Part shown: positions 6,331 to 41,956 of the stretch, one piece after another
How positions within the stretch are numbered: position 1 is the stretch's first letter
Layout: each line of letters begins with the position of its first letter
Assembly: GCA_039630545.1 (NCBI GenBank)
Contig: JBCNUU010000006.1
Coordinates: 17,543 to 81,542, forward strand
Reading direction: 5' to 3'
From: Endomicrobiia bacterium
GTDB lineage: Bacteria > Elusimicrobiota > Endomicrobiia > DTEH01
Length of the DNA stretch: 64,000 nt
Program-made: the position numbers and the translations under genes
Notes under the pieces: generated by a model
The model's input: only the letters and a program-made list of their open reading frames with translations
Database searches by the model: none
What the model was told of the DNA's origin: nothing

Positions 6331-6530
6331 TGTCTTAATTTTCTCTATGGAATTTCATTTACATTGATTCTTTTTGAATTTTGTCTTTTCTTCGCATTCA
6401 ATAAAATTTGAGAATTTATTGTATTTGTTTTTTTATCTTTTGTCGGGATCTTATCTTGGATTTTACACTAAGATTTCATTTTCATTGTTCTATAATTTTC
6501 GTGCTTATTTTTGTAACAACAGTAAAAATG

Positions 6531-23110: not shown

Positions 23111-23186
23111 CGGGCTCGACGGGATTTGAACCCGCGATCTCTGGCTTGACAGGCCAGCGTGTTGAACCAGGCTACACCACGAGCCC
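23111..23186 (-). tRNA. tRNA-Asp (GTC)
   Basis: Manual cloverleaf: acceptor GGGCTCG/CGAGCCC, anticodon loop CTGTCAA, T-loop TTCAAAT, G73 discriminator; GC-rich island in AT-rich DNA; CCA not encoded. Confidence 0.85.
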
Positions 23187-23199
23187 ACCACCCAAAATA

Positions 23200-23271
23200 T
23201 GGGCGGTAGAGGATTTGAACCTCTGACCTTCCGGGTGTAAACCGGGCGCTCTCCCGCTGAGCTAACCGCCC
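23200..23271 (-). tRNA. tRNA-Val (TAC)
   Basis: Manual cloverleaf: acceptor GGGCGGT/ACCGCCC, anticodon loop TTTACAC, T-arm AGAGG-TTCAAAT-CCTCT. Ends placed by hand, +/-2 nt. Confidence 0.8.
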
Positions 23272-23305
23272 TTGTTATTTAATCAATCAAATAAAAACTT
23301 TCCTG

Positions 23306-23380
23306 GGTGGTTGACGGGACTTGAACCCGCAACAACCTGGGCCACAGCCAGGTGCTCTATCCAGTTGAGCTACAACCACC
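23306..23380 (-). tRNA. tRNA-His (GTG) with encoded G-1
   Basis: Manual cloverleaf: extra 5-prime G pairing with C73, anticodon loop CTGTGGC, T-loop TTCAAGT. Confidence 0.82.
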
Positions 23381-23408
23381 ACAAAACAAACCTTTTTCAA
23401 ATTCAAAA

Positions 23409-23482
<74 letters not shown>

Positions 23483-23489
23483 ATTAAAA

Positions 23490-23562
23490 TGAGCCCGGAG
23501 AGATTCGAACTCTCGACACCCGGCTTAAAAGGCCGGTGCTCTACCGACTGAGCTACGGGCCC
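23490..23562 (-). tRNA. tRNA-Lys (TTT)
   Basis: Manual cloverleaf: acceptor GGGCCCG/CGGGCTC (one G-U), anticodon loop CTTTTAA, T-loop TTCGAAT. Confidence 0.82.
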
Positions 23563-23585
23563 TTTTTTTATCAAAATTTTTACTC

Positions 23586-23657
23586 AGCCGGCGAAGGGAT
23601 TTGAACCCCCGACCTGACGCTTACAAGGCGCCTGCTCTACCACTGAGCTACGCCGGC
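23586..23657 (-). tRNA. tRNA-Thr (TGT)
   Basis: Manual cloverleaf: acceptor GCCGGCG/CGCCGGC, anticodon loop CTTGTAA, short variable arm (so not Tyr), T-loop TTCAAAT. Confidence 0.78.
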
Positions 23658-25251: not shown

Positions 25252-26385
25252 CTATTCAATTATAGTCTTATCATAGTTTAATATCTGAGAACTACCTTCT
25301 TCTGAAAACCATAAAAATTTGTTATCTATATAAAAACTTGAAATGTTTTTGTTTGCCAAAAAACTTAATTTAAAAGAATTTGATATTTCTTTGAGTCCTT
25401 TAAGCATATAAAGATTATAATCATTATCTAAAATCCATATTTTGTTTTTATAAGAAGACGCATAAATTGTATTTTTTATCAGATAAGAAAATTTTTCTAC
25501 AATTCTATTTAAATCTTTATCATAAAGTATGACTTCTTTGGCTTTATTATTAAACACTAAAATATTTCCTCTATAAGCTACAATACATATTGGCTCAATT
25601 TGAGATAAATCAAGTACTTTAAGCAAAATATTTTTATTTTTTATTATCGCATATTTGTAAATTTTTTTATTCCAGCCATCTAAAATATACAAAAAATTAG
25701 ATATAAAACAAACAGAAGTAGGTACTATATTATCTTTAGCAAATTTAAAAGAAGTTACCAATAATAAAAAATCACCTTTCATTTTATAAAATGCTACTTC
25801 TTGAGAAGACCAACTGCTTAATACAAGTTTATTATCAATTTTATTTATAGAGGAAATAGTTTCTAATGTAGTGTCATAGATCTTTGGGATTGGAATTTTT
25901 TCTTTTGAAATAAAATTTTTATAAAAAAATAAAACACCCACACTAACAACAAAAATTCCACCAAAAATAAATAAAAAATTTTTTATTTGAAAATTTAATT
26001 TAAAACCTAAAGATTGAAGATGTTGGATTTCTGCTTCATGAGATTTAACAATCTGTAGATTATCAACTGGCATTTGAGAAGAGATTGTTTTGTTTTCTTT
26101 TGAAAGAATACTTATTTTTGTTAACAGCTCATTTAAATTTTTTTGAGCCTCAAAATATCTTGGATTGAGCCTGAGTGCTTTTTCAAATTCCATCCTTGCT
26201 TCTTCTAAAAAACCCTTTTTCGCTAGAGCTTTTCCTAAAGAGTTATGAACATCTGCGTAGTCAGCTCCATATTCTATTGCTTTTTTATATTCCTCTATGG
26301 CTATATCTAACTCTCCAGTAGCTTCAAAAACTCTTCCACGATAATAATGCCTCATCGCATCAAATGAAACATCATATTTAGACAT
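25252..26385 (-). CDS. TPR-repeat membrane protein (N-terminal TPR, one TM helix, C-terminal beta-rich domain)
   Basis: 377 aa; TPR-like AIEEYKKAIEYGADYADVHNSLGKALAKKGFLEEARMEFEKALRLNP; TM FLFIFGGIFVVSVGVLFFY. Confidence 0.6.
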   Translation of the reverse strand: MSKYDVSFDAMRHYYRGRVFEATGELDIAIEEYKKAIEYGADYADVHNSLGKALAKKGFLEEARMEFEKALRLNPRYFEAQKNLNELLTKISILSKENKTISSQMPVDNLQIVKSHEAEIQHLQSLGFKLNFQIKNFLFIFGGIFVVSVGVLFFYKNFISKEKIPIPKIYDTTLETISSINKIDNKLVLSSWSSQEVAFYKMKGDFLLLVTSFKFAKDNIVPTSVCFISNFLYILDGWNKKIYKYAIIKNKNILLKVLDLSQIEPICIVAYRGNILVFNNKAKEVILYDKDLNRIVEKFSYLIKNTIYASSYKNKIWILDNDYNLYMLKGLKEISNSFKLSFLANKNISSFYIDNKFLWFSEEGSSQILNYDKTIIE

Positions 26386-26397
26386 AAGTTTTTCTCC

Positions 26398-27570
26398 TTA
26401 AGCTGGAAATTCTAAAGTTACAACTGTTCCTTTATTAAATACAGAGGTTATATCTATTTTAGCATCGAATAATTTTAAATACCACTTTGCTTTAAACAAT
26501 CCTATACCAAAATGTCCCTGTTCAAATTTTGTGGTAAAAAACAATTCAAAAACTTTTGGCAATAAATGTTCAGGTATTCCACAACCATTATCTTCTATCA
26601 TTATTCTTTTAGACAACTCAGAGGAATATAACCTGATAGTTATTCTGTTGCCTGTAAGCTGTAAAAATGCTTCTAATGAATTTTGAATTATCTCAGAAAT
26701 AATATCTATTAAAATTTGAAAATCTGCTTCTACAATAAACTCTACATCTGGCGACAAAATTTCTTGTACAACTTCTACATTTTTAAAAGAAATTTCATTT
26801 TGAAATTTATTTAAAACAGAAACTAAAACTGATTTTAAATCTACTTTCTGGATATTTATAGCAGTTGGAGGTTTTAAGCGTTCAGATGCAGTACGAATTA
26901 TATCTCTTATTCTATATATCTCTTTCTGTACTAATGAAATTTTTTTAAAAGAAGGATGGCCATCTATTTCATCTTTTACTAAATTAAAAGCTTCATCTAT
27001 GATTCCAATTGGGTTTCTAAAATATCTTAAACATTCATTCATACAAGTAGTCAACAATTTCATATGTGACAACACATACTCAATTTTATCCTGTTTTATG
27101 ACTTCTTTAAGAGATTTTTCTTTTTTAGAAATGCTTTCTATTTCATTTTTTAAATTTTTATTTTCTGCCTCAAGTTCTGTTATTTTTTTTATAAGTTCTA
27201 AAAAAGATTTATCCTGTTGAACAGACAAAGCTGAAACTTTAGCTATCTGTTGTTCTTGTGTAGATTTAATTTGTTCATATTTTGCAATTATGTCTTCCAT
27301 TTCTTTTTGTAATTTTTGAATTATTTTCTCTTTTTCTTGTAGAATTGTTTCATAACCTTTTTTTATTGTTTCAAGTAACATATTTTGAACTTCAGAGAAA
27401 AAAGATGGAGATACAACGCCAGATGATATAATCTGTGGTTGAATATTTAAAATTTGTGTTGAGATGTTATCTTTTTTATTTTGTATTTCTTCAGTAAGTT
27501 TTTTTATTCTTTCACGAATTTTTGTTATTTTTTCTTTTTCTTGTTGTGATAGTTTTTCTAAATCTTTCAT
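26398..27570 (-). CDS. Histidine-kinase-like protein (coiled-coil N-terminus, C-terminal HATPase_c), no TM segment, no adjacent response regulator
   Basis: 390 aa; GHKL ATPase motifs (IEDNGCGIP, FTTKFEQGHFGIGL); long heptad-like N-terminal region. Confidence 0.7.
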   Translation of the reverse strand: MKDLEKLSQQEKEKITKIRERIKKLTEEIQNKKDNISTQILNIQPQIISSGVVSPSFFSEVQNMLLETIKKGYETILQEKEKIIQKLQKEMEDIIAKYEQIKSTQEQQIAKVSALSVQQDKSFLELIKKITELEAENKNLKNEIESISKKEKSLKEVIKQDKIEYVLSHMKLLTTCMNECLRYFRNPIGIIDEAFNLVKDEIDGHPSFKKISLVQKEIYRIRDIIRTASERLKPPTAINIQKVDLKSVLVSVLNKFQNEISFKNVEVVQEILSPDVEFIVEADFQILIDIISEIIQNSLEAFLQLTGNRITIRLYSSELSKRIMIEDNGCGIPEHLLPKVFELFFTTKFEQGHFGIGLFKAKWYLKLFDAKIDITSVFNKGTVVTLEFPA

Positions 27571-27575
27571 AGGGT

Positions 27576-28922
27576 TTATGGTATCTCAAGCACACTTCCA
27601 GGAACTAATTGCCCCCTTATGATTTTTTCTTTGTTTGCTTCATAAATTTTTCTCCATTGGGAAGCATCTCCATAGTATTTTTCAGCTAATTTTGGTAAAG
27701 TGTCACCCTCAACAACAGTATGATATCTTTTTTTGGGAATCGTAACAGGTTGTGGTTGTGATGGTTTTGGTTTTTCTTCAATTCTTTTTGTTTCGGCTTC
27801 TTTAAGTTTTTTTTCTAATTCTTCTATTTTTTTTAACAACTCCTCTTGAAGAAGTATTTGCTGAGACTGCAAAATTTGTGGTTGTTCTTTTTTTTCAACT
27901 TCTAACTTAGAAGATAACATTTTAAGTTCTTCTTCAAGCTTTTGTTTTTCTAAAAGAAGTTTTTCATATTCTTTTTTTGAAATCTTTTCTTCTTCAACTT
28001 CTACAGGAAAAAATTTATAACTTAAAGAAATACACTGTTGTCCACCTGTGTCAATTTTATTTATCAAAGAAAACTTATAACCATAGTTAAATGTTATTCT
28101 AGAAGTATATAAACCAAAACCTAAAGAAATACTGTTGTAATCTTTGTTTCCATAACATATACCAAAGGATGGAGTAAATTTTAATTTTTTGTTAAAGAAT
28201 AACATCTTGTATTCAAACACTAAGGAGACAAAATAATCCGTCAAAGAAGAAAATTCAAATTTTATATCAGGTAGTATTTTTATATTTTTATAATTGTATC
28301 TATATCCAAAACTCATCCTTAATGGCATTTTCTCTTCAGTATATAAACCTATAGATGGCTGTAGTATATTGTCTATTGTAAATGCTCCTGTATGAATTTC
28401 ATTAAACATATATAAACTACCTAATGAAAATGAAAAATAAGATATTTCTTTACTTTTTAAAAATACAGGATTGTTTTTTATATACTCATCAAGAGTATAG
28501 GCTTCTTTGTCATATGTAAGCTTTAATCCAAAAGCTATCTTTGAGTTGATTTCTTTTAGTTGTCTACCGTAAGACAGCAGGATTTTGTTTTTAATGTACC
28601 AATCTGTAATTCCAAATTGATTAAATCCTAAACCTAAACTTCCACCCAGAAATTTCTGTGTAACTGCTAAACTATTATTAATAAATTTAGTTCCATCTGT
28701 CAAGTTAGGATAAATGAGGTTATAAGTAACAACCACTTCAGCTACTTTTATGTTCCATAAACCAGAAGGGTTTAAAAACATACATCCTGCTGAACCATCT
28801 TCAGCAGCTGGTTCTAACTTTCTTAAGTTCTCAGCAGAAAAATTTTCAGAAGGAGAATATCCACATAAAAAGTTGTAGATAAACAAAAAAACGACTATTA
28901 TTGTTCTATTTAAATACTTCAT
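27576..28922 (-). CDS. Secreted barrel-like protein with C-terminal coiled coil and LysM domain (putative outer-membrane to peptidoglycan tether)
   Basis: 448 aa; signal peptide MKYLNRTIIVVFLFIYNFLCG, about 300 aa of alternating aromatic/hydrophobic beta-like segments, charged coiled coil (EKLLLEKQKLEEELK...), C-terminal LysM YHTVVEGDTLPKLAEKYYGD. Confidence 0.65.
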   Translation of the reverse strand: MKYLNRTIIVVFLFIYNFLCGYSPSENFSAENLRKLEPAAEDGSAGCMFLNPSGLWNIKVAEVVVTYNLIYPNLTDGTKFINNSLAVTQKFLGGSLGLGFNQFGITDWYIKNKILLSYGRQLKEINSKIAFGLKLTYDKEAYTLDEYIKNNPVFLKSKEISYFSFSLGSLYMFNEIHTGAFTIDNILQPSIGLYTEEKMPLRMSFGYRYNYKNIKILPDIKFEFSSLTDYFVSLVFEYKMLFFNKKLKFTPSFGICYGNKDYNSISLGFGLYTSRITFNYGYKFSLINKIDTGGQQCISLSYKFFPVEVEEEKISKKEYEKLLLEKQKLEEELKMLSSKLEVEKKEQPQILQSQQILLQEELLKKIEELEKKLKEAETKRIEEKPKPSQPQPVTIPKKRYHTVVEGDTLPKLAEKYYGDASQWRKIYEANKEKIIRGQLVPGSVLEIP

Positions 28923-31900
28923 TTTGCTACAATTATTGTCCCAGTAAATGTTTTATTACCAACTTTTATTTTATAAATATAAACACCTTTTGGCACAAAG
29001 TTTCCGTTGGTATCTTTCCCATCCCAGGTAAGTTCTACACCTTCTAATTTTAACCTGGCAATATATCTTAAGTTTAAATCATAAACTTCACCTTCAGGTG
29101 TAAACAAAGTAGGATTGAAAATCACAAAATGAATTTTGTTGTCTTGTGACGCTGTTGGTGTAAAGATTTTTTTTGGATAAATATTTGTAATCACAGGTTC
29201 TTGAGTTGAAATGACTTTTCTTACTACATATTCTCCTGTAGACCTTAAAGTACATCTCAAAATACTTTTTTGTTCATCATAAAAACTTGGAACAAGCACA
29301 TATTCAATATCATTATTAAAAAATACTAAAGGTTTTACTTTAACTAAATTTTTTTCTTCCACGAAATTATCGGATGAATAATCTTCATTTTCTTTCTGAA
29401 GAAAAATTTCTAAGTTTATTGGCTGTTTAAACTTATAGGAGACAGGTTTATTATTTCTAACAAGTTCTAATTTATATTTCATAAATGTACTGAAATTAAT
29501 ACTTTCATTTTCTTCAACAGGTACTGTTGTAATGTTAAGTTTATAGCCATAAAATGAAATTTCTTCTTCTACACCTTTTGGAATAACGATCTTCATTGTA
29601 TCTAAAAAGGGAATAATTCTACTTCCCGAATTAAAGGAAGAAACTACATCTGACGGTAAACTTTCTATTCCAGTTTCTGTTACAACCTTTATTAAATAAT
29701 AATAAGTGTTAAAATAAATATAGTCGGTAAATGTCGTAGCCGGAGTTGAGACAAATTTATAAAAAGACGAAGGGTTTAAAACACCTTCATAGTCCTGACT
29801 GCGATAAATGTTATAGCCTTTAATGTCGTCAGCTAAAGAACCATCTGTATATGTTTGCACTTTTTCCCATGATAAAATAAATCTATAATCAGGATTATCA
29901 TAATTTATTTTTTCTATTCTTGAAGGAATATTTATTACTCCTATAAAGAAAGTATTTTTAGTAGGTTCACTAAAAATATCTTCCTCATCTATTGCTATCA
30001 CTTCATAATAATATGTCATATTCTGTGTTAAGTTTATTTGGGGCTGATATGAATTAGATGAAACTTCTACATCAATTACTGGAGAATAAAGATTTTTATT
30101 GGAAAAAATTTTGAGTCTATATTTTTTAATGCTAGTGTTGGGTTCCGGGTGTGGTAAAGGTTCCCATTCAAAAACAGGTCTTCTTAATAAAATTTCTCCT
30201 TCGGGATTTAAAATTTTTACACCTTGAGGTCTAAAATATGGCACATAAAAGCTTAAAACTGAAGAATCTCTCCACAGGCCTCTTTTATCATAAGCGCGTA
30301 TTTTCCAATAATAAGTTGAATTCATTAAGAGCTTAAAATTGATTGTGTAGACAGTAACTGAAGATGAAACCACAATGGATGTTGTAATGTTTAGCTGAAA
30401 ATTTTGTTTTGTTGAAAGTTTAATTTCATAATAGTTTATACCATCGTCTTTATCAAAACCTATCTCCCATATAAACTGAGGCTTTCTTGTAAAAACTGTA
30501 CTTGACGGGGAAAATATTCCAAATGGTTCTGGTGGATCGTTTTGGGAGTCAATGAATAAATAATTAGTTGTAGATATTTTTTGACTAACTTGATTTTTAG
30601 CAACTACATACCAGAAATATGTTGTGTTTTCTTTTAAGGTTGAAGTAGAATATGAAATAGGTTGTAGTTCTTTGTAGTTTTCATAAGGACCTAAAAAAAA
30701 TTCTACTTTATTGGGTGGTTTTCCTAGTTCACCTATGTATAACTCATACGTTATCTGTTTCCACCACTCTGTAATATTTGCGGGTGCCCAAATTAGATTT
30801 AAAGGTTGTGTTGCCCGAGTAAAAGTATAGGATGAACCTGGACTAAGTAGATAAATATCATCGGGAGGATCATCCTGTAGGTCTACTATAAACATGTAAG
30901 ATGAAATGCTTTTTGTATAGTTTGATTTTGTATCATAAGCTTCAACCCACCAGTAGTAGGCTGCATTTTCTTTTAATTTTGATAAATCTATATTATAACT
31001 TAAAGTTGTACTTCCTAAAATAACTATATATGTTGAATCACCTACTATATAGCTTTCTGCTGATGAAATTACTACTTTATATTGTTCTACATAATCCTTT
31101 GGATCAGAGTCATAACTTTGTTGCCAGCTTAAATTTATATATCTTTCTTTTATTACTCCAGAAGTGATATTGAGATAAAAACTTTTTGGATTTTCTTCAT
31201 AAAAATTTACCCAGAAAGAACCAATAGTAGAACTTGAAATCCCTCCATAGTTATCATAAGCCACCACCTGCCAGAAATATTGAGTGTTTTCTTTAAAATC
31301 AAAAAAGATTTCTGCCTCTATAGTTTCTCCTATTTGTTTTCCTATGTTTGTTCCGGCAGAAAATTTTTCATAAACAGAAAAATTTTGAAAACTTGAAATA
31401 TATAAAGTATAGTATAATATATCTCTATCCAAATCTCCATTGTTTTTAAACTTAAATTTAAAAGAAGATAAAACTATTTCATCATTTAAAGGATATACTA
31501 ATTCAAAATTGTTTGGATCAAAATTTGTAGTTTGAAAATAAAATGTAGAGTAGGGTGTCTCAAAATTTCCAAATTTATCATAAGCTTTTACATACCAGTA
31601 ATAAGTGGTCCTAGGATGCAGATCAAAATTTAAAATAAATTTTGTATCTGAAGAATAAAAAGTATAATAAGAAGAAAAATTAGCAAAACTGCTTATTATA
31701 ATTACATAACTTGAAACAAAAGAATCATAGTTGTCTGGATCGTATACTTGTTCCCAGTAAAATGTTGGTCTAAAAGTTTTAATTCCTGATGCAAAAGGAT
31801 GACTTATGCTTACTCCAGGAGACAAAAGATTAAACTTTAATGGCCTCTGGTTTGAAACTATAAATCTTCCGGTACTTAAAGCGACACCATATGGTTTTAC

Positions 31901-34669
31901 TAAGTATGGTTGCGATGTAGAAGGATTTAGTGCAAAATCCCATTCATTTTTACTCCAGCAATGAACCTGCCAGTAGTAAGTTACAGAAGGGCAAAGCTTA
32001 GAAAGTGTAAACATAACTGTAGTAGAACTTATATCTGAATTTTCTAAATATACATTTATTTTCCAAAAAGGTAAAGTATACCAATGATCGGAATTCTGAA
32101 TTAAGACCGTAGAAATATTTAAAAAATAATGTTTTACAGAATCAAAAGGATCTGGATCTTTAGGTTTTGACCATTCAAAATATATTGGCCCTTCCAGAGA
32201 TGCTGGATTTACTATACCGGTAGGTGTAATTATGGTATAGTTAGAAGGTGGTTCTTTAATAAAATCTATACAAAAACTTAAAGGATTTTCATTTAAAGGT
32301 GGAGAAAATGTTTCTGTTGAACTCCATATCCAGTATAGATTTTGAGGAGCATCAATTGCTCTAATCCTGAAAAAATATGTGGTATTTTCTACAAGCTCAA
32401 GTACATATCCTTCTTGGGTACCTTCTTCTATGTTTTTTACTATAACTGTGGAAACAAAAAAATCCCATTTTTTAAACCAGTCATCATATTCAAATGGTGG
32501 AGCATTAAATGTCGGATTTGTAACATATCTCCAGGCATTTGGTTCTGTTTTTGGTTCACGCCAGCTTGAAATAAAAACTGCATATTCATATACTCCGTCT
32601 TCAGGATCAGGATCCCATGTAGGCTGCCAACATAAAACTATAGGAGTTGATTTAGCAATAAATATCTTTTTACCATCAACAACTTTTTCCGTTACAGGAT
32701 AATAGGTTGTATCATCCAGTATTACTTTATAGAAAGTTACATTTTTTATTAAAGAAATCATACCAGTAGGGAAAAACACATCAAAACTACAAACAGGTTC
32801 ATCTATTTGGTTTACCCAAAAACTTGCAACTGGAGTTTGAGTAGAAAGTTGACTAAATCCAAAAGGAGCTCCTGAATCATATGCTACAACATACCAGTAT
32901 ATTTTTTGGTTCTCATAAAAAAGCAATTCATTAGAAGAAGGTTGAGTATATGGTGTCATCAAAAAATATGAATTAGTAAGTAAACCTTCCTGTGGAATTG
33001 TAATGTAGCTTTCAAAATTTTCTGAAGTAGAAAGATAAATTTTATAACCAACAACATAATCAAAAGGATCTATCTCATATGCATCTTTAAAATCAAAAAT
33101 TAAACTACCATCTTTAGTATGCACTACAGTATTTGAAGGTGAAATTAAAGGATTTAAAGGAAACTTTGGAGCTGTATTTTGAAAGTTTACTGTAAACCTA
33201 AAAATAGCAGTGGTTGAAGAAGCATTTTCTGAATCATATACAGAAAGACTCCAGAAGTATGTGATATTGTCTTGTAAGTCCTTAACAACTATAGATGTAG
33301 CAGAAGTAGACACTTCAACCAAAATCGCTCCTAAAGTGTTACCAATGGTATAGCTTGAGATTTTTAATGTGTAGGTAGATATATAATCTCCGTAATCAGA
33401 ATCGTAACTGTTATCACTGAAAGAGAAACCAGCATGCCACACTGCATCAGACCAATCAAATTTTACTGTTGAGGAAGAAATAATGGTTGAAGTGGTATTT
33501 TTTACTGGATCATATACAAAGTGTTTGTGAGGATAAAAACATGAAGGAGAAGAATTAAAAGCTCTGCAAAAAGGAGATGAAGAAGAAATTAAAGACCAGT
33601 TTAATTTTTCATCTGCTATTTTTATAGAAAAATAATAAGGACTACTATTAACTAGATTATTTACTACTATATTTGTAGAAATATAAGGAGTAATGTTTAC
33701 ATTAGTTATAAAAAAAACTTCCGTAGCTTGGTTCCATAAAGTTTCATTATATATTTTTTGGGTGTGATATTTTATCTTATAACTTCCTGTATAGGTAGAA
33801 GAATTGTATAAGAAACCATCCTCATATGAGTCTTCATATGGAAAAACCCAACTAAGTTTTACATGTCTAAATCCAGCTGAAACAAAAATTGATGTAATAC
33901 TTTTTGGAGGTGAAATATCAGGCTGAGCCCACATTGTTGTTTTGTTAGACATCTCAGAAAGATTACCTAGTTCATCTTCTGCCCAAATTCTTAAATAATA
34001 AGTTATCCCACCAGATAATCCTGTAATCAAATATCCTGCAGACCATATATAAGATGGGTAAGAAAAAGTAGATATTACAATCTGGGCAGCAGAAGTACTC
34101 CAATTGTTAAAATACTCTATATCTGTATACTGAATATAATAATAACCAGAAAGAATACCGGTCATCGTATTGTTGATATAATCATCACTTCCTTGAAATT
34201 TTAATTCAACTTCTCCCTCATGAACTCCGGGATTTGCTTCTATAATCTCTACATAAGGCAACCATAGAGTCATCCAGCCGGTTGCAATATTTGATAAGGA
34301 TAAATCACCCTGAGATCCTGAAGAAATAAATACAACAAAATAAAATGTTGTAAACCTGCTTAAAGAATTCTCAAGCACAAAATTATCTAACCCTGTAAGC
34401 ACAAACAATTGTTGTTGAAGAGGATTGACGGGACCCGTGGATACTACTATGGAAGAAGAAGTTGACCAGTTAACTTCATAAAAACTACTGTATTTTATGT
34501 AGTATGCACTTCCTTCAGGTAACACATCCGGACCAGGATAAGTCCATATTAGCTTTACACTGCCTTCTTTTAGTTCATCAATTCCTGAAATCGAAAATAA
34601 ATCGGAAACAGGATTAGGTTGAGCAAAAACTTTAAAAGTAAATAAACTTAAAAATAAAACAATATACAT
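28919..34669 (-). CDS. Giant secreted protein with tandem Fn3-like repeats and a C-terminal FlgD-Ig-like (sorting-type) domain
   Basis: 1916 aa; signal peptide MYIVLFLSLFTFKVFAQ; recurring TxYYWxVxAYD-type repeat ends (YFWYVVA, YYWKIRAYD, YFWQVVAYDNYG, YYWWVEAYD, YYWYVKAYDKFG); C-terminus LTWDGKDTNGNFVPKGVYIYKIKVGNKTFTGTIIVAK. Confidence 0.8.
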   Translation of the reverse strand: MYIVLFLSLFTFKVFAQPNPVSDLFSISGIDELKEGSVKLIWTYPGPDVLPEGSAYYIKYSSFYEVNWSTSSSIVVSTGPVNPLQQQLFVLTGLDNFVLENSLSRFTTFYFVVFISSGSQGDLSLSNIATGWMTLWLPYVEIIEANPGVHEGEVELKFQGSDDYINNTMTGILSGYYYIQYTDIEYFNNWSTSAAQIVISTFSYPSYIWSAGYLITGLSGGITYYLRIWAEDELGNLSEMSNKTTMWAQPDISPPKSITSIFVSAGFRHVKLSWVFPYEDSYEDGFLYNSSTYTGSYKIKYHTQKIYNETLWNQATEVFFITNVNITPYISTNIVVNNLVNSSPYYFSIKIADEKLNWSLISSSSPFCRAFNSSPSCFYPHKHFVYDPVKNTTSTIISSSTVKFDWSDAVWHAGFSFSDNSYDSDYGDYISTYTLKISSYTIGNTLGAILVEVSTSATSIVVKDLQDNITYFWSLSVYDSENASSTTAIFRFTVNFQNTAPKFPLNPLISPSNTVVHTKDGSLIFDFKDAYEIDPFDYVVGYKIYLSTSENFESYITIPQEGLLTNSYFLMTPYTQPSSNELLFYENQKIYWYVVAYDSGAPFGFSQLSTQTPVASFWVNQIDEPVCSFDVFFPTGMISLIKNVTFYKVILDDTTYYPVTEKVVDGKKIFIAKSTPIVLCWQPTWDPDPEDGVYEYAVFISSWREPKTEPNAWRYVTNPTFNAPPFEYDDWFKKWDFFVSTVIVKNIEEGTQEGYVLELVENTTYFFRIRAIDAPQNLYWIWSSTETFSPPLNENPLSFCIDFIKEPPSNYTIITPTGIVNPASLEGPIYFEWSKPKDPDPFDSVKHYFLNISTVLIQNSDHWYTLPFWKINVYLENSDISSTTVMFTLSKLCPSVTYYWQVHCWSKNEWDFALNPSTSQPYLVKPYGVALSTGRFIVSNQRPLKFNLLSPGVSISHPFASGIKTFRPTFYWEQVYDPDNYDSFVSSYVIIISSFANFSSYYTFYSSDTKFILNFDLHPRTTYYWYVKAYDKFGNFETPYSTFYFQTTNFDPNNFELVYPLNDEIVLSSFKFKFKNNGDLDRDILYYTLYISSFQNFSVYEKFSAGTNIGKQIGETIEAEIFFDFKENTQYFWQVVAYDNYGGISSSTIGSFWVNFYEENPKSFYLNITSGVIKERYINLSWQQSYDSDPKDYVEQYKVVISSAESYIVGDSTYIVILGSTTLSYNIDLSKLKENAAYYWWVEAYDTKSNYTKSISSYMFIVDLQDDPPDDIYLLSPGSSYTFTRATQPLNLIWAPANITEWWKQITYELYIGELGKPPNKVEFFLGPYENYKELQPISYSTSTLKENTTYFWYVVAKNQVSQKISTTNYLFIDSQNDPPEPFGIFSPSSTVFTRKPQFIWEIGFDKDDGINYYEIKLSTKQNFQLNITTSIVVSSSVTVYTINFKLLMNSTYYWKIRAYDKRGLWRDSSVLSFYVPYFRPQGVKILNPEGEILLRRPVFEWEPLPHPEPNTSIKKYRLKIFSNKNLYSPVIDVEVSSNSYQPQINLTQNMTYYYEVIAIDEEDIFSEPTKNTFFIGVINIPSRIEKINYDNPDYRFILSWEKVQTYTDGSLADDIKGYNIYRSQDYEGVLNPSSFYKFVSTPATTFTDYIYFNTYYYLIKVVTETGIESLPSDVVSSFNSGSRIIPFLDTMKIVIPKGVEEEISFYGYKLNITTVPVEENESINFSTFMKYKLELVRNNKPVSYKFKQPINLEIFLQKENEDYSSDNFVEEKNLVKVKPLVFFNNDIEYVLVPSFYDEQKSILRCTLRSTGEYVVRKVISTQEPVITNIYPKKIFTPTASQDNKIHFVIFNPTLFTPEGEVYDLNLRYIARLKLEGVELTWDGKDTNGNFVPKGVYIYKIKVGNKTFTGTIIVAK

Positions 34670-34700: not shown

Positions 34701-35195
34701 TTACTTATTAAAATATACTAATTTTTTAAGGATTATTTCAACACAAATTTTAATTTCTTCTGCTGTATTAAGATAAATACTTTCCGGCTGACCAATTGGA
34801 TCAAAAATTTCTGGCTGTGAAAAAAATCCCGCAAATTCTTTTAAGAGATAAACTTTATCAAAAAATTTCTTAAAATTCAGATAGATGAAATCCATTTGGC
34901 TTTTTTCCATTACAAAAACTATATCGGAAATTTCCAATAAAGGAGAATTTATTTTTGTAGGTATATGTTTTGAAAGGTCTTTTTCTTTGATATTATAGAT
35001 TTTAAAAAGTTTATTAATACTTTCTGGAATTTTAAAGTTTTGCTGTGCTATTACTCCGCAAGAGTAGACTTTAATATTATCTATATTATATTTAGCCAGA
35101 AGATGTAAAGTATATCCTTCAGCAAAAACACTTCTAAATACATTTCCATTACACACATAAAGTATTGTTTTTATTTCTTTCATAAGTTTATTCAA
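34701..35195 (-). CDS. Low-molecular-weight protein tyrosine phosphatase
   Basis: 164 aa; P-loop CX5R (VCNGNVFRS) and DP motif (IFDPIG). Confidence 0.85.
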   Translation of the reverse strand: MNKLMKEIKTILYVCNGNVFRSVFAEGYTLHLLAKYNIDNIKVYSCGVIAQQNFKIPESINKLFKIYNIKEKDLSKHIPTKINSPLLEISDIVFVMEKSQMDFIYLNFKKFFDKVYLLKEFAGFFSQPEIFDPIGQPESIYLNTAEEIKICVEIILKKLVYFNK

Positions 35196-37389: not shown

Positions 37390-38466
37390 CTATAAACCAG
37401 ATTTCTGCAGTAATTTTTTAAGTTCTTCCGGATCAGAAGAAGCACTTATGGCTTCTTCCAGACTAATTAATCTTCTTTGATACAAATCTGCTAGTGCTTG
37501 ATTCATTGTTTGCATTCCAAATTTTGCACCAGTTTGAATTAAAGTAAATATTTGTTCTGGCTTTCCTTCACGAATTAAGTTCCTTACAGCAGGTGTAGCA
37601 ACTAACACCTCACAAGCTAAAACTCTACCTTTGCCCGAAATATGCAAAAGAAGCTGCTGTGCCAAAACTGCTTGTAGTACAAAAGAAAGCTGAACTCTTA
37701 CTTGCTGCTGTTGATGAGGTGGAAAAACATCCACTATTCTGTTGACAGTAGAAACAGCATCTGTAGTATGAAGAGTTGCAAAAACCAAATGCCCCGTCTC
37801 GGCTATAGTAAGTGCCGCAGAAATTGTTTCTAGATCGCGCATTTCTCCTATCAAAATAATATCAGGATCTTCTCTTAACACATACTTTAATGCTGTAGCG
37901 AAACTTTCTGTATCTGAACCAACTTCTCTTTGGTTTATTATACAGTTTTTATGATGAAACAGATATTCTATAGGATCTTCTATTGTAATAATATGGGCAT
38001 TTCTATGTTCATTAATAAAATTTATCATAGAAGCTAATGTTGTTGTTTTCCCGGACCCCGTGGGACCTGTTACCAAAATTAAACCCCTTGGAAGATCTAC
38101 AAGTTGAGAAACAATTTTTGGAAGTCTTAATTCTTCAAAAGTAGGAGGAGTCGAAGGAATAGCTCTCAAAGCTGCAGCAACTGCACCCTTTTGACGAAAA
38201 ACATTCATTCTTATTCTTCCTATATCTCTTACTCCAAAAGATACATCCAACTCATTAAGTGTTTCAAACCTTTCTTTCTGTTTATCTGTAAGAACAGAAT
38301 AAATTAGTTTTTGACACATTTCTGGGGTAAGTTTACCAAAAGAGGTAGGTACTAACTTACCATCAACTCTTAACATAGGAGGTAATCCAGCAGTAATATG
38401 TAAATCTGAAGCTTTTTGTTCATGCATTAAATACAACAAATTTTCCATACTTAAAGACATCTCCAT
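37390..38466 (-). CDS. pilT: Type IV pilus retraction ATPase PilT
   Basis: 358 aa; Walker A GPTGSGKTTT, Asp box, Walker B DIILIGEMRD, His box, PilT-type GMQT motif. Confidence 0.92.
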   Translation of the reverse strand: MEMSLSMENLLYLMHEQKASDLHITAGLPPMLRVDGKLVPTSFGKLTPEMCQKLIYSVLTDKQKERFETLNELDVSFGVRDIGRIRMNVFRQKGAVAAALRAIPSTPPTFEELRLPKIVSQLVDLPRGLILVTGPTGSGKTTTLASMINFINEHRNAHIITIEDPIEYLFHHKNCIINQREVGSDTESFATALKYVLREDPDIILIGEMRDLETISAALTIAETGHLVFATLHTTDAVSTVNRIVDVFPPHQQQQVRVQLSFVLQAVLAQQLLLHISGKGRVLACEVLVATPAVRNLIREGKPEQIFTLIQTGAKFGMQTMNQALADLYQRRLISLEEAISASSDPEELKKLLQKSGL

Positions 38467-38492
38467 ATATCAATCCTCCCTTTAAAAATAAT

Positions 38493-40208
38493 TTAAACAC
38501 CTGTTTCTTCACTAACAGTAACTCTTAAAACTTCCTCTATAGTTGTGATTCCAGCAAGCATTTTTCTTATTGCAGATTTTCTTAAAGTAGACATTCCATT
38601 TCTTATAGCTACTTTCTTTATTTCTATATCTGGTGTGTTTTTCAAAATCATTTCTCTTATTTCATCTGTTATCTCCATAATTTCATAAATACCTATCCTT
38701 CCTTTATATCCATTATTACATTTTTTACACCCAGCACCTTTATATAGCACTACTTTTTTTTGTCTTTGAACCATATCATCAGTAACTCCTAAAGGATACA
38801 ACTTCTCTACAGGAACCTCATATGGCTGTTTACATTCTGAACATATTTTCCTTACTAATCTTTGAGCTTCAACTAAAGTAAGTGTGGAAGAAATTAAAAA
38901 TGGATCTATCCCCATATTTACAAGACGCGTTACAGCAGAAGGTGCATCGTTTGTATGAAGAGTAGAAAATACTAACTGACCTGTTAAAGCTGCCTGAATT
39001 GCTATTCTTGCTGTCTCTGTATCACGAATTTCACCTACTAAAATTATATCAGGTGCTTGTCTTAAAAAAGCTCTTAAACCAGAAGCAAATGTTAATCCAA
39101 CTTCAGGATTCACATTTACCTGTGTTATTCCATCTAAAAGATATTCGACAGGATCCTCTATTGTTAATATATTGACTTCTGGACGATTTAAAGTTGAAAG
39201 AGCAGAATATAAAGTAGTTGATTTTCCAGAACCGGTAGGTCCTGTAATCAAAATTAAACCAAAAGGCAACCTAATTGTCCTTAAAAAAATCTCTAGCTGT
39301 TCTGGTTCAAAACCCAATTTTTCAAGATCCAAACACAAGGCAGAAGAATCGAGGATTCTTAAAACTGCTTTTTCTCCATATACCACAGGAAGTATTGAAA
39401 CGCGAAAATCTATCTCTCTTTCATCTATGCGCATTTTTATTCTACCATCTTGAGGTTTTCTTGTTTCTGTAACATCTAGCTTTGACATAATTTTTATTCT
39501 TGCTATCAAGGCATTATAAACATGATGAGGAAAAAATGCTTCCTCTTTTGCTACTCCATCAATCCTGTAGCGCAAACGACATTTCTTTTCAAAGGGTTCA
39601 AGGTGTATATCAGAAGCTCTTTTGCGAACTGCTGTAATAATAATATTATTTGCAAGCTTAACTATAGGTTCTTCTTCCGCAAGTTCCCTTACTTCAACTG
39701 TTTCTGGTATTGGCTCGACTTCTATTGAAGTTTCTAATTTCTCAAGTTCATTTATTTCTTTCTCTATGTGTGTTGTTTCTTCTTTTAAAAGATACTTTCT
39801 TATATTCTCCTTAATATCTTTGAGAGTGGCAACTACCGGCTTAACATTAAGTCCTGTAGAAAGTTTAATGTCATCTATTATAAACAAATTATAAGGATCA
39901 GGAAGAGCCACCGTTAAAGTATTCGTTTTTTTATCAAAACTTATAGGGAAAACATTATGTTTTTCTATAAACGTCCTAGGCAGTAAATTAATTACAGATT
40001 CGTCTATTTCAAGTTCTGAAATATAAACAAAATCCAAATTTTGTTGTCTTGCTAAAAAAGACAAAAGAACATCTTCAGTGATATATCCTAAATTTATCAA
40101 AGTCTGCCCTAATTTTTCACCAGTTTGTTTTTGTAAAGTCAAAGCTTCTTCAAGTTGCTTTTGTGTTATAATATTTGCTGAAATTAAAATTTCACCTAAT
40201 TTTTGCAT
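38493..40208 (-). CDS. pilB: PilB/GspE-family assembly ATPase (paralog 1)
   Basis: 571 aa; N-terminal GSPII_E_N-like domain, Walker A GPTGSGKSTT, tetracysteine motif CSECKQ...CKKC. Confidence 0.9.
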   Translation of the reverse strand: MQKLGEILISANIITQKQLEEALTLQKQTGEKLGQTLINLGYITEDVLLSFLARQQNLDFVYISELEIDESVINLLPRTFIEKHNVFPISFDKKTNTLTVALPDPYNLFIIDDIKLSTGLNVKPVVATLKDIKENIRKYLLKEETTHIEKEINELEKLETSIEVEPIPETVEVRELAEEEPIVKLANNIIITAVRKRASDIHLEPFEKKCRLRYRIDGVAKEEAFFPHHVYNALIARIKIMSKLDVTETRKPQDGRIKMRIDEREIDFRVSILPVVYGEKAVLRILDSSALCLDLEKLGFEPEQLEIFLRTIRLPFGLILITGPTGSGKSTTLYSALSTLNRPEVNILTIEDPVEYLLDGITQVNVNPEVGLTFASGLRAFLRQAPDIILVGEIRDTETARIAIQAALTGQLVFSTLHTNDAPSAVTRLVNMGIDPFLISSTLTLVEAQRLVRKICSECKQPYEVPVEKLYPLGVTDDMVQRQKKVVLYKGAGCKKCNNGYKGRIGIYEIMEITDEIREMILKNTPDIEIKKVAIRNGMSTLRKSAIRKMLAGITTIEEVLRVTVSEETGV

Positions 40209-40225
40209 ATAAGTTTAAATAAAAG

Positions 40226-41956
40226 TTACTCTTCTTCAGCAAATGTATTTTTAATTACTTCTTCAACAGTAGTGATACCCGCTAATAATTTTTTTAAAGC
40301 CGCCTCTCTTAATGTTATCATTCCGTTTTTTCTTGCTTGTTGTTTTATCTCAAAATGAGAAGCTTTTTTAAGGATTAAATCCTTTATTGACTCATTGCAA
40401 TCAATCACTTCAAATATTCCTGTTCTTCCTTTATATCCACCTTGACATTTACTACATCCTGTTCCTTTGTAAATAACTATTTCCTTCATATTCTTTACCA
40501 TTTCAGATGTAACACCTAATGGTTGAAGTTGTTGAAGTGAAACCCTATATTGTCTACGACACTCTTTACATATTTTTCTTAAAAGCTTTTGAGACATCAC
40601 AAGTGTTAAAGTTGAAGCTATTAAAAACGGCTCCACACCCATATTTATCAGCCTTGTTACTGCAGAAGCAGCATCATTTGTATGTAGAGTAGCAAAAACT
40701 AAATGTCCAGTTAAAGCTGCGTTAATACCTATTTCAATTGTTTCTTTATCTCTTATTTCTCCTATCATTATTACATCTGGATCTTGCCTTAAAAACGCAC
40801 GCAAAGCAGCAGCAAAAGTAAGTCCAACTTTTTCATTGACATTTACTTGATTTATACCATACATAACCGCTTCAACAGGATCTTCAACTGTCATAATGTT
40901 TACATCTTCAGTGTTTAAAACATTAAGTGCTGAATATAATGTTGTAGTCTTTCCTGAACCAGTAGGACCTGTAACAAGAATCATTCCATAAGGTTGTTTT
41001 ATAGCTTTTTCAAAAAGCCTAAGTTGTTCTTCCTCAAAACCTAATTCTGTTAAAGGTAAAGTAAGTGCCTGTGCGTCTATTATTCTTATACAAACTTTTT
41101 CTCCATGCGCTGCAGGTATAACTGATAAACGAAGATTTATTGGTTTGCCATTATAAGACATCCTGACTCTTCCATCTTGTGGTTTTCTTCTTTCAGTAAT
41201 GTCCATCTTACCCATTATTTTTATTCTTGCCACTACAGAAGGAAGCAATTTTTTAGGTAGAGGTTTTTGATCATGAAAAACACCGTCAATTCTGTACCTT
41301 ATTCTTACTTGTTTTTCCTGGGGTTCAATAAGAATATCAGAAGCATTTAAATTCAATGCTTGTTCTATTATAAAATTTACAGCTTTTACAACTGGAGCAG
41401 CATCTGCTTTAATATCTAATTCAGTGATATCCTGTTCTTCTACTATTTCAGCAGTGCCTGTTTCTATTTCTGTTTCTGCTTTCTTTTCTATTTCTTCTAT
41501 AGACTCTTTTTTCTCATAGTATTTGTTTATCGCTTCCAAAATCTCTTTTTTTCTTGCTACAACAATTTTTATGTTATAAGGAGTAGCCAACTTAAGACTA
41601 TCAAGGGCTATTATATCTAAAGGATCTGACATAGCTACAGTGAGAGTTTTTGTATTTTTGTCAAACTCAACAGGAATAAACTGAAAAGTTTTTACTAATT
41701 TTTCTGAAACTAACTTAAGAGTATCGGTAGGTATTTCATCAATTTCTGAAAGTGAAATGTAAGGAATATTAAACTGTTTAGCTAAAACAGCAAAAAGGAT
41801 TTCTTCGTTAACAAGTCCTTCTTCTATTAACAACTCACCAAGTTTTTTGCCTGTTTTTTTTTGAGTTTCTAACACACTTTGTAGTTGTTCCTGGGTAATT
41901 AGTCCTAATGCTACAAGAAGTTCTCCTAGTTTCTTATGAGGAGTTATTATTTCCAT
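40226..41956 (-). CDS. pilB: PilB/GspE-family assembly ATPase (paralog 2)
   Basis: 576 aa; same architecture, Walker A GPTGSGKTTT, tetracysteine CKECRR...CSKC; clearly paralogous to the downstream copy. Confidence 0.9.
   Translation of the reverse strand: MEIITPHKKLGELLVALGLITQEQLQSVLETQKKTGKKLGELLIEEGLVNEEILFAVLAKQFNIPYISLSEIDEIPTDTLKLVSEKLVKTFQFIPVEFDKNTKTLTVAMSDPLDIIALDSLKLATPYNIKIVVARKKEILEAINKYYEKKESIEEIEKKAETEIETGTAEIVEEQDITELDIKADAAPVVKAVNFIIEQALNLNASDILIEPQEKQVRIRYRIDGVFHDQKPLPKKLLPSVVARIKIMGKMDITERRKPQDGRVRMSYNGKPINLRLSVIPAAHGEKVCIRIIDAQALTLPLTELGFEEEQLRLFEKAIKQPYGMILVTGPTGSGKTTTLYSALNVLNTEDVNIMTVEDPVEAVMYGINQVNVNEKVGLTFAAALRAFLRQDPDVIMIGEIRDKETIEIGINAALTGHLVFATLHTNDAASAVTRLINMGVEPFLIASTLTLVMSQKLLRKICKECRRQYRVSLQQLQPLGVTSEMVKNMKEIVIYKGTGCSKCQGGYKGRTGIFEVIDCNESIKDLILKKASHFEIKQQARKNGMITLREAALKKLLAGITTVEEVIKNTFAEEE

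Follow-up and report, generated by a model that had tools for sequence, protein, structure and literature searches.

A PorV/PorP-like barrel fused to a LysM stalk, a candidate carrier and cell wall anchor for a giant secreted protein in Elusimicrobiota

Introduction

What would an outer-membrane barrel do with a cell wall-binding domain of its own? The question is raised by a gene found in a 64-kb stretch of Endomicrobiia DNA (hereafter the window; all coordinates refer to it), whose product might hold the outer membrane to the wall or might serve another protein. [quoted passage not shown] In this model, which has the status of a proposal, PorP-PorE complexes would pin the non-mobile type B cargo to the wall (PMC9143113, PMC12618676). 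Type IX secretion, to which such pairs belong, is treated in the literature surveyed as specific to Bacteroidota or to the FCB group.

Results

Predicted architecture of the target protein

The target open reading frame starts with ATG on the minus strand and encodes 448 amino acids, its coordinates including the stop codon. It is a genuine gene and not a chance reading frame, because its product is identical to a protein from an Endomicrobiia MAG (MEN3013971.1), has full-length homologues with 43-64% identity, and belongs to a family of 677 cluster representatives (profile search of a 50%-identity library, E <= 1e-30). The family is currently annotated merely as 'LysM peptidoglycan-binding domain-containing protein'. 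The features of the gene are the following.

27576..28922, minus strand: target gene, encoding signal peptide, PorV/PorP-like barrel, two-helix stalk, Pro-rich linker and LysM (ORF)
28857..28922, minus strand: Sec signal peptide, non-lipoprotein, residues 1 to ~22 (sequence read directly)
28743..28847, minus strand: N-terminal hatch-like segment, residues 26-60, with the N51-P52 'NPA/NPS' motif (alignment A1, model)
28008..28742, minus strand: predicted 14-stranded outer-membrane beta-barrel, residues 61-305 (AlphaFold2 model)
27783..28007, minus strand: predicted periplasmic stalk, amphipathic helices 316-343 and 350-378 (model, heptad bias)
27726..27782, minus strand: Pro-rich flexible linker, residues 381-399 (25% Pro; pLDDT)
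27579..27725, minus strand: C-terminal LysM, residues 400-448, presumed peptidoglycan binder (Pfam LysM)

The barrel-stalk-LysM architecture is kept across the 28 homologues of alignment A1. The signal peptide (MKYLNRTIIVVFLFIYNFLCGY) was modelled by AlphaFold2 as a low-confidence helix (residues 2-20). Lipoprotein anchoring was considered and rejected, the signal peptide having no lipobox and Cys20 not being conserved in the 28-member alignment. In the segment that follows, alignment A1 shows N51 and P52 to be almost invariant and the model has short helices at residues 30-57; in line with the titles of PDB entries on FadL mutants, we take the NPA/NPS motif to be the hatch motif of FadL-family barrels.

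The region of residues ~26-305 is rich in F (9%), Y (7%) and G (8%). AlphaFold2, run with the 28-sequence alignment, modelled 14 strands spanning residues 62-303, with a pLDDT mostly of 84-96 per 10-residue block (lowest 77) and a mean of 81.5 for the whole model. The modelled fold is that of PorP/SprF proteins, a 14-stranded FadL-fold outer-membrane barrel of ~300 residues. In structure comparison the barrel matched PorV and FadL, with a FadL score slightly lower than the PorV score, so that the fold by itself cannot tell a carrier from a transporter.

Residues 306-380 are 49% D/E/K/R. The a/d heptad positions are hydrophobic at a frequency of 0.75 in helix 316-343 (0.20 elsewhere) and of 0.63 in helix 350-378 (0.29 elsewhere), and the two helices are separated by a variable Pro/Gln-rich break. 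A single continuous coiled coil of 70 aa was rejected on account of this break. Among close homologues the stalk helices are 53-62% identical, compared with 48% for the barrel, and the spacer from barrel to LysM measures 94-113 aa in 24 of the 28 members. The helices may also mediate oligomerisation. None of the 28 aligned members has a cysteine beyond the barrel, which leaves no place for the Cys-X-Cys of an SprF-type C-tail. The linker is modelled with a pLDDT below 50 at residues 380-395.

The LysM domain (residues 401-448) scores 24.4 bits against Pfam LysM (PF01476, cut-off 20.9) and is modelled as beta-alpha-alpha-beta (strands 399-402 and 444-447, helices 409-417 and 420-429) with a pLDDT of ~90. 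It was matched in all 28 family members and is the most conserved region, with 85% pairwise identity among close homologues. When the profile of alignment A1 was searched against PDB sequences, LysM chains only were matched, among them Kbp, LytE, an autolysin and TsaP; PorV was not retrieved. Homology to the LysM domains of LytE, the autolysin and TsaP suggests that this domain binds peptidoglycan. Outer-membrane barrels with an even number of strands and the FadL/PorV fold have both termini on the periplasmic side. The modelled topology would place the helices and the LysM in the periplasm, and the protein is consequently expected to bridge the outer membrane and peptidoglycan.

Most of the architecture proposed in the preliminary description is borne out by these results, namely the signal peptide, barrel, charged helices and C-terminal LysM; its single heptad region of ~70 aa gives way to two helices. 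Its barrel holds as well, since a transmembrane beta-barrel of 14 strands is predicted by AlphaFold2 and structure comparison and a soluble beta-sandwich is not.

Homology of the barrel to PorP/SprF and PorV/PorQ

The target protein itself matched no PorP or PorV model of Pfam or NCBIfam at E <= 1, LysM being its only match; the family of its barrel was revealed through homologues and structure and not by direct scan. NCBIfam PorV_fam was matched by 8 of the 28 family members (best E 6.2e-21), as was TIGR03519 PorP/SprF (8/28, best E 5.1e-17), and Pfam PorP_SprF (PF11751) by four of the 28 (best E 1.6e-8). One homologue with 48% identity to the target (P0015) aligned with the PorP model over its full length (positions 1-292 of 292, E 3.7e-11). 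All these scores lie below the family cut-offs: homologues reach 19-43 bits on the PorP model (cut-off 90.55 bits), and the best family member 75.3 bits on the PorV/PorQ model NF033709 (cut-off 90 bits). Judged from these profiles, homology to the PorP/SprF and PorV/PorQ families is significant, at sub-threshold scores.

With 14 strands and no match to OmpA (OmpA_C, PF00691), the protein differs from the 8-stranded OmpA family, and it has no N-terminal SLH domain of the OmpM/SLH-porin type. In a sister variant (P0153), it is TPR repeats that are fused to the barrel.

A giant gene with a type-B-like CTD lies directly upstream

The neighbourhood of the target gene contains the following features.

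34701..35195, minus strand: upstream neighbour, low-molecular-weight phosphotyrosine phosphatase (LMWPc)
28919..34669, minus strand: partner gene, 1916-aa secreted fn3/Ig-repeat protein, presumed cargo/adhesin (ORF, Pfam)
28922..29206, minus strand: CTD of the presumed cargo, its last ~95 aa, type IX type-B-like sorting domain
28919..28922, minus strand: ATGA, in which the stop codon of the cargo gene overlaps the start codon of the barrel gene (sequence GCAAAATGAAGTAT)
26398..27570, minus strand: downstream gene, cytoplasmic coiled coil with a HATPase_c kinase-like domain (Pfam HATPase_c)
25252..26385, minus strand: downstream gene, N-terminal TPR, one predicted membrane-spanning segment and a beta-rich C-terminal domain

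The 1916-aa protein has a signal peptide (MYIVLFLSLFTFKVFA, followed by Q) and fn3 and Ig_Rha78A_N repeats (Pfam). Its last ~95 residues gave weak matches to CHU_C, FlgD_ig and Por_Secre_tail; they score 16.8 bits on CHU_C (PF13585, cut-off 27) and are sub-threshold for every CTD model. They are 38-41% identical (E 5e-17, 1e-20) to two orthologous CTDs of another locus (L004), which score 33.3 and 36.7 bits on CHU_C, above the cut-off, and keep an FTPNxDGxxD motif. On the type B model TIGR04131 the highest score was 33.4 bits (cut-off 35). Distant Elusimicrobiota orthologues retain the motif as KIFTPNNDG..D; the CTD of the window and those of close Endomicrobiia relatives have a degenerate form of it (KIFTPTASQDN). 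A motif of the FTPNGDGxND type at the start of the domain is a hallmark of type B CTDs. The fold is an Ig-like beta-sandwich of ~70-90 residues that resembles solved type IX CTDs. A word-indexed homologue search returned two matches for a 120-aa CTD query and six for the C-terminal 600 aa of the cargo, too few to tell how many other proteins bear this CTD.

Presumed cargo and barrel genes are paired in a conserved module

From the ATGA overlap, the cargo and barrel genes of the window are predicted to be translationally coupled. In 13 Elusimicrobiota loci examined, a CTD protein of 915-1961 aa is encoded directly upstream of the barrel-LysM gene wherever upstream DNA is present. Conversely, all CTD-profile matches (17/17) in six-frame ORFs of ~250 kb were the gene directly upstream of a barrel-LysM gene. 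A reciprocal start from one cargo with a CHU_C match (P0038) led to a downstream barrel-stalk-LysM gene (28% identity, E 1e-32), and a second cargo (P0104, locus L089) likewise has a barrel-stalk-LysM gene downstream. One genome (L004) carries two tandem modules of cargo and barrel-LysM. In conclusion, pairing of the cargo and barrel genes is strict, with translational coupling, across the inspected Elusimicrobiota loci, and the target gene, like those of PorP/SprF proteins, lies beside the gene of its presumed cognate cargo, here one with a type-B-like CTD.

The module comprises four conserved genes: cargo, barrel-LysM, coiled-coil protein and TPR-membrane protein. The HATPase_c gene is found at the same position in five loci (L001, L002, L004, L005 and L087) and is replaced by coiled-coil-only proteins in more distant ones. 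The TPR-membrane protein has TPR matches at residues 13-90 and a hydrophobic segment (FLFIFGGIFVVSVGVLFFY), and its synteny is conserved. The LMWPc gene lies 31 nt from the cargo gene, at the same position in L001, L002 and L087; no terminator-like site was found on the coding strand in the gaps between the LMWPc, cargo, barrel and downstream genes, and the operon may begin with LMWPc. Elsewhere in the window, at 37390-41956, two ATPases resemble PilB and one resembles PilT.

Search for type IX core and general tether genes

No type IX core gene (SprA/Sov, PorK/L/M/N, PorV, PorU) was found in the 64-kb window, in its ~20 kb of flanks or beside related modules, where the unannotated neighbours are coiled-coil proteins. 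Neither Pal nor OmpA was found in these places, the window being covered by a Pfam scan of ~40 of its ORFs. Literature searches returned no report of type IX secretion in Elusimicrobia/Endomicrobia and none of PorP-LysM fusions; a carrier or anchor of this kind has not previously been described in Elusimicrobiota.

Discussion

A candidate carrier and anchor with a built-in wall-binding module

We propose, with a probability of roughly 60%, that the target protein is a carrier and anchor of the PorV/PorP/SprF kind, with a built-in wall anchor comparable to PorE, for the giant protein encoded upstream. The protein would be exported by Sec and then inserted into the outer membrane by the barrel-assembly machinery, residues ~26-305 forming the 14-stranded FadL-fold barrel. 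From the last strand, a stalk of ~100 residues (two helices and linker) would hang into the periplasm, where we place the LysM from the model, and would end in this peptidoglycan-binding domain. By analogy with SprF, which retains SprB, and PorP, which retains PG1035, the barrel would recognise the type-B-like CTD of the upstream protein and retain this cargo on the cell surface, and the LysM stalk would pin the barrel-cargo complex to the wall. The outcome would be a giant adhesin or surface fibre, anchored statically, for which a route across the outer membrane is presumed.

Alternative readings

A barrel followed by a periplasmic stalk and LysM would physically bridge the outer membrane and the wall, and the protein could be a general envelope tether comparable to OmpA, Pal, Lpp or OmpM, next to which the giant gene is incidental. 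The Lpp coiled coil sets the membrane-to-wall distance in E. coli; the conserved 94-113-aa stalk would similarly fit a fixed distance, and the barrel-LysM family is widespread in Elusimicrobiota. We nevertheless consider this reading unlikely: adjacency and coupling to a CTD-bearing giant gene are strict (17/17 matches), two paralogous modules occur in one genome, and the barrel falls in the cargo-binding PorV/PorP group. In addition, a scan of species-representative genomes seeded on the LysM motif gave 80 loci, of which 71 were LysM-only matches in Gemmatimonadales and others and only nine were full-length matches, all in uncultured Elusimicrobia. This number suggests an accessory and not a core envelope gene, although barrel homologues with a divergent LysM may have been missed because of the seed. 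Finally, Tol-Pal has been reported for Elusimicrobia in a survey (PMC12204202), so that the phylum probably has a canonical tether. The preliminary description had proposed a tether role with an unusual domain order. A barrel at the N-terminus and a wall-binding module at the C-terminus is exactly the order of OmpA; the link between membrane and wall remains probable from the fold topology, and it probably operates within a cargo-specific module instead of as a general tether. Translational coupling, constant pairing and tandem modules are the reasons for which we favour a cargo-specific carrier/anchor of the PorP/SprF kind.

The module might also be a self-contained system for export and display that works without a type IX translocon, in which the cargo depends on the barrel, possibly with the downstream proteins, to arrive at the surface and is then anchored by the barrel. 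BAM-assisted export or a nearby machinery of the type II or type IV pilus kind would be candidate routes. The four-gene module is conserved, the inspected DNA contains no type IX core gene, and the PilB-like (two) and PilT-like (one) ATPases at 37390-41956 would fit such a machinery. However, the core search covers only ~84 kb of one genome and ~20-kb pieces of others, a plugged 14-strand barrel is, from its fold, expected to be too narrow for folded fn3 domains, and every type B CTD cargo characterised so far requires the SprA translocon (PMC9143113), which makes export of this sort improbable. A related and broader proposition, which we hold to be doubtful, is that the Elusimicrobiota that bear the module have no type IX translocon and motor, and that the four-gene cassette serves the autonomous display and wall anchoring of giant proteins, as a system related or ancestral to the type IX carrier step. 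If the cassette were autonomous, recognition of CTD by barrel would have evolved, and would work, independently of the type IX machine.

There is little to recommend a FadL-type uptake channel for hydrophobic compounds, merely stabilised by the LysM tail. The FadL and PorV scores are close, but the profile matches go to PorV/PorP, and, despite the common fold and the NPA-like motif, membership of Pfam Toluene_X (PF03349, FadL/TodX) is not indicated (two of the 28 members match, best E 0.02); moreover, no fatty-acid or aromatic catabolism genes were found among the scanned ORFs of the window, and the pairing with a CTD cargo would be left unexplained. Least credible is a surface-exposed stalk whose LysM binds foreign glycans (chitin, another cell's wall): chitin and other GlcNAc polymers are among the known ligands of LysM domains, and the profile matches include the LysM of the fungal effector Ecp6 (4b8v, E 0.0029), but the FadL/PorV-fold matches are consistent with both chain ends being periplasmic and the model has no passenger-type linker through the lumen.

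Implications

Natural gene fusions are classic evidence of a functional link. If the target protein is a carrier with a built-in anchor, its fusion of barrel and LysM would lend independent support to the proposed role of PorP-PorE in fixing non-mobile type B cargo to the wall (PMC9143113, PMC12618676). It would also extend the range of type IX-style pairs of cargo and carrier to Elusimicrobiota, which raises the question of how their giant proteins cross the outer membrane. A family of 677 representatives would gain a testable role, and giant genes adjacent to its members could be flagged as cargo. A FadL/PorV-fold barrel with a helical stalk and LysM would be a third way to join an outer-membrane barrel to the wall.

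Comparison with known systems

The closest relatives in organisation are the PorP/SprF carriers (SprF-SprB, PorP-PG1035, Fjoh_3951-Fjoh_3952), which have in common with the target a 14-strand FadL-fold barrel of ~300 residues. Their genes, like the target gene, lie immediately downstream of that of a very large, repeat-rich protein with a type-B-like CTD (PMC9143113, PMC12618676), and the pairs are likewise one-to-one and cognate, with several modules per genome possible. PorP/SprF proteins are found in Bacteroidota, whereas the target belongs to Elusimicrobiota and scores far below the family cut-offs; it has a C-terminal extension of ~145 residues (helices and LysM) that is absent from PorP and SprF. 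SprF, a carrier of mobile adhesin, is joined to the GldK track by a disulfide bond of the Cys-X-Cys in its periplasmic C-tail (PMC12635249); this motif has no counterpart in the target. PorP/SprF proteins work with the type IX core (SprA/Sov translocon, PorK/L/M/N or GldK/L/M/N), of which nothing was seen near the target.

PorP-PorE has the proposed function that we ascribe to the target: a barrel of the PorP type would be held to peptidoglycan, together with its type B cargo, in a static surface complex (PMC9143113, PMC12618676). PorE is a separate lipoprotein with TPR, beta-propeller and OmpA_C-like domains, whereas the wall module of the target would be a LysM on a helical stalk, fused to the barrel. 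The TPR protein encoded two genes downstream in our locus differs from PorE in that it apparently spans a membrane and has no OmpA_C. PorV and PorQ are shuttle and attachment-complex barrels for type A CTDs. PorV handles numerous type A cargos, which it passes on to the PorU sortase; the target gene has a single type-B-like cargo gene as its partner, and its product ends in a putative wall-anchoring tail.

OmpA and OmpM resemble the target in combining an integral outer-membrane barrel with a module that binds peptidoglycan non-covalently. Compared with OmpA (8 strands, OmpA_C) and OmpM (SLH and porin), the target has a 14-strand FadL/PorV fold, a long helical stalk, a LysM and an obligate cargo-gene partner. 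In the intimin/invasin inverse autotransporters, a periplasmic LysM at the N-terminus is combined with a 12-strand barrel, and the adhesin is the surface passenger of that polypeptide; in the target, the LysM is C-terminal, the barrel is predicted to have 14 strands and the presumed adhesin is a separate polypeptide.

Domain layout of the barrel-LysM protein

The gene studied lies on a 103,948 bp contig of about 29% G+C from an uncultured Endomicrobiia bacterium (phylum Elusimicrobiota), directly downstream of a giant ORF:

27576-28922, minus strand: target gene, exact match to one 448-aa reading frame (MEN3013971.1)
28919-34669, minus strand: 1916-aa ORF, the presumed cargo (hereafter the cargo)

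The 448-aa protein is labelled by NCBI merely as 'LysM peptidoglycan-binding domain-containing protein'. All the sequence elements listed in the preliminary description were found. A Sec signal peptide (without lipobox) is followed by about 280 residues in which F, Y and G are abundant, then by a charged stretch (49% charged residues in 306-380) and, after a proline-rich linker, by a LysM domain (residues 401-448, 24.4 bits for a Pfam cut-off of 20.9). The charged stretch consists of two amphipathic helices with a clear heptad bias, 316-343 and 350-378, separated by a Pro/Gln break whose length differs among homologues.

In an alignment of 28 members, the spacer between barrel and LysM measured 94-113 residues in 24 of them. 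Among close homologues, identity was 53-62% in the two helices compared with 48% in the barrel, and was highest in LysM (85%). This conservation of the helices suggests that the stalk may make a specific contact, by oligomerisation or with a partner protein. Its approximately 63 helical residues would span about 9 nm if extended, a length similar to that of Lpp, which sets the membrane-to-wall distance in Escherichia coli.

Identity of the barrel

AlphaFold2, run with the 28-sequence alignment, predicted with confidence that the N-terminal domain is a 14-stranded barrel (pLDDT mostly 84-96 in blocks of 10 residues), with short hatch-like helices in front of it. Searched alone against Pfam and NCBIfam, the target protein reached no PorP or PorV model. 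Among the 28 members, eight matched NF033709 PorV/PorQ (best E 6.2e-21), eight matched TIGR03519 PorP/SprF (best E 5.1e-17) and four matched Pfam PorP_SprF, all these scores falling under the curated cut-offs. Close Endomicrobiia homologues aligned along the entire PorP/SprF model (P0015, E 3.7e-11), and the resemblance to PorV/PorQ was greater in more distant Elusimicrobiota members. Residues N51-P52 are nearly invariant (NPA in most members, NPS in the target protein), an NPA-type motif shared with the FadL-family hatch. Since the family scores are under the curated cut-offs, the target protein is, as judged from these matches, a distant member of the PorV/PorP/FadL group of barrels, outside the families by the curators' rules.

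The barrel-LysM gene is paired with a presumed cargo gene

The target start codon overlaps the stop codon of the cargo gene (ATGA). The cargo ORF includes a signal peptide of its own as well as numerous fn3/Ig_Rha78A_N repeats. Its last 95 residues or so (CTD) gave weak, sub-threshold matches to CHU_C, FlgD_ig and Por_Secre_tail; CHU_C is the sorting domain of type B cargos in type IX secretion. This CTD shares 38-41% identity (E 5e-17 and 1e-20) with the C-terminal ends of the giant proteins of locus L004, in a distant Elusimicrobiota MAG. These orthologous CTDs pass the Pfam CHU_C cut-off (33.3 and 36.7 bits), with the FTPNxDGxxD motif kept, which lends support to the weak matches of the cargo CTD.

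A CTD protein of 915-1961 aa was encoded directly upstream of the barrel-LysM gene in 13 of 13 Elusimicrobiota loci, wherever upstream DNA exists. All six-frame ORFs of the window and 14 loci (about 250 kb), scanned with a profile built from 12 CTDs, gave 17 matches, each being the gene upstream of a barrel-LysM gene. A search begun from the cargo side led to P0038 (CHU_C, 774 aa), followed by a 488-aa homologue that covers the full barrel-stalk-LysM length (28% identity, E 1e-32), and P0104 showed the same overlap arrangement in locus L089. Two loci present variants:

L004, 1-11413 (Elusimicrobiota MAG GCA_043826435.1, same contig as L013): a tandem of two cargo/barrel-LysM modules, both complete
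L091, 1255-6951: sister architecture P0153 (842 aa), in which the homologous barrel is joined to TPR repeats in place of stalk and LysM

Both L004 barrels end in LysM, both cargo CTDs pass the CHU_C cut-off, and each module is trailed by its own accessory gene pair. P0153 sits two genes past an 835-aa CHU_C/FlgD_ig protein; FliG and MotA/MotB are encoded on the same contig.

When 1.84 billion representatives were searched with a profile, 677 proteins matched at E<=1e-30, and most of the top 150 matches span the entire barrel-stalk-LysM profile. The few matches with organism names were from Elusimicrobiota only, and full-length matches among species-representative genomes were found at nine loci, all in Elusimicrobia or Endomicrobia MAGs.

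Neighbouring genes

Two further genes are usually kept downstream of the barrel-LysM gene, and always in Endomicrobiia:

25252-27570, minus strand: accessory gene pair, also in L001, L002, L004, L005 and L087

The first encodes a cytoplasmic protein with a coiled coil of about 180 aa, often with HATPase_c and with no membrane segment; coiled-coil-only proteins take its place in more distant loci. The protein encoded by the second combines TPR repeats at the N terminus with a beta-rich C-terminal domain and a single hydrophobic segment.

In L005 (1924-4056) and L011 (316-2516), the cargo gene is preceded by genes for a coiled-coil protein and for a protein sharing the C-terminal motif of the TPR-membrane protein; this pair looks like a remnant or accessory half of a second module. 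In L089 (1-6018), two coiled-coil-rich ORFs (>1059 aa and 945 aa) directly precede the cargo gene and matched only SMC-like models.

Other features of the window were:

4310-6530: 2.2 kb of G+C 0.24-0.26 with no ORF >78 aa, within a cluster for polysaccharide synthesis (GT4, GT2, flippase-like gene); its short ORFs look like decayed gene fragments, such as methyltransferase-like pieces at 5663-5872 and 6041-6199
23111-23657, minus strand: six tRNA genes packed closely together between an ABC ATPase gene and obg
61164-63392, plus strand: RecJ-like protein (DHH, DHHA1, RecJ_OB) whose DHH and DHHA1 domains are separated by an inserted exonuclease domain of RNase_T/DnaQ type, apparently an uncommon fusion of two exonuclease types

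Export route and function

No type IX core gene was found in the 64-kb window, in about 20 kb of flanking contig or in the unannotated neighbours of related modules, and none of the literature searched reports type IX secretion in Elusimicrobia. Because no core gene was found, a less likely alternative would be self-contained export or display of the cargo without a type IX translocon, the four genes perhaps forming an autonomous cassette in Elusimicrobiota that lack this machine. At a distance of 3-7 kb upstream, the module is preceded by three ATPase genes:

37390-41956, minus strand: T2SSE-family genes in tandem, two PilB-like with MshEN domains and a shorter PilT-like one

In this lineage they might provide another export or pilus machine.

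The preliminary description suggested a possible outer membrane-peptidoglycan tether of unusual domain order. A physical link between outer membrane and wall is likely, but the gene looks like a member of a cargo-specific module rather than a housekeeping tether; Tol-Pal is reported for Elusimicrobia (PMC12204202). The order is not unusual, as a barrel followed by a wall-binding module is that of OmpA.

In Bacteroidota, type B CTD proteins need cognate PorP/SprF-like barrels encoded alongside, to which they remain attached at the cell surface; for non-mobile cargos a tie to peptidoglycan via PorE-like proteins of the same operons is proposed, one that mobile cargos such as SprB-SprF do without (PMC9143113; PMC12618676). 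The Endomicrobiia protein most likely follows the static variant of this arrangement, carrier and wall anchor being a single chain: the barrel would grip the CTD of the giant protein, the tail, expected from the fold topology to be periplasmic, would extend to the wall, and LysM would bind peptidoglycan and so anchor the giant statically. SprF is joined to the moving GldK track by a C-tail Cys-X-Cys (PMC12635249), whereas a tail cysteine is missing from all 28 barrel-LysM members. None of the literature searched describes LysM joined to a barrel of the PorP or PorV type. The protein is best read as a probable PorP/SprF-like carrier that brings its own peptidoglycan anchor, from a phylum that lies beyond the recorded distribution of type IX secretion.
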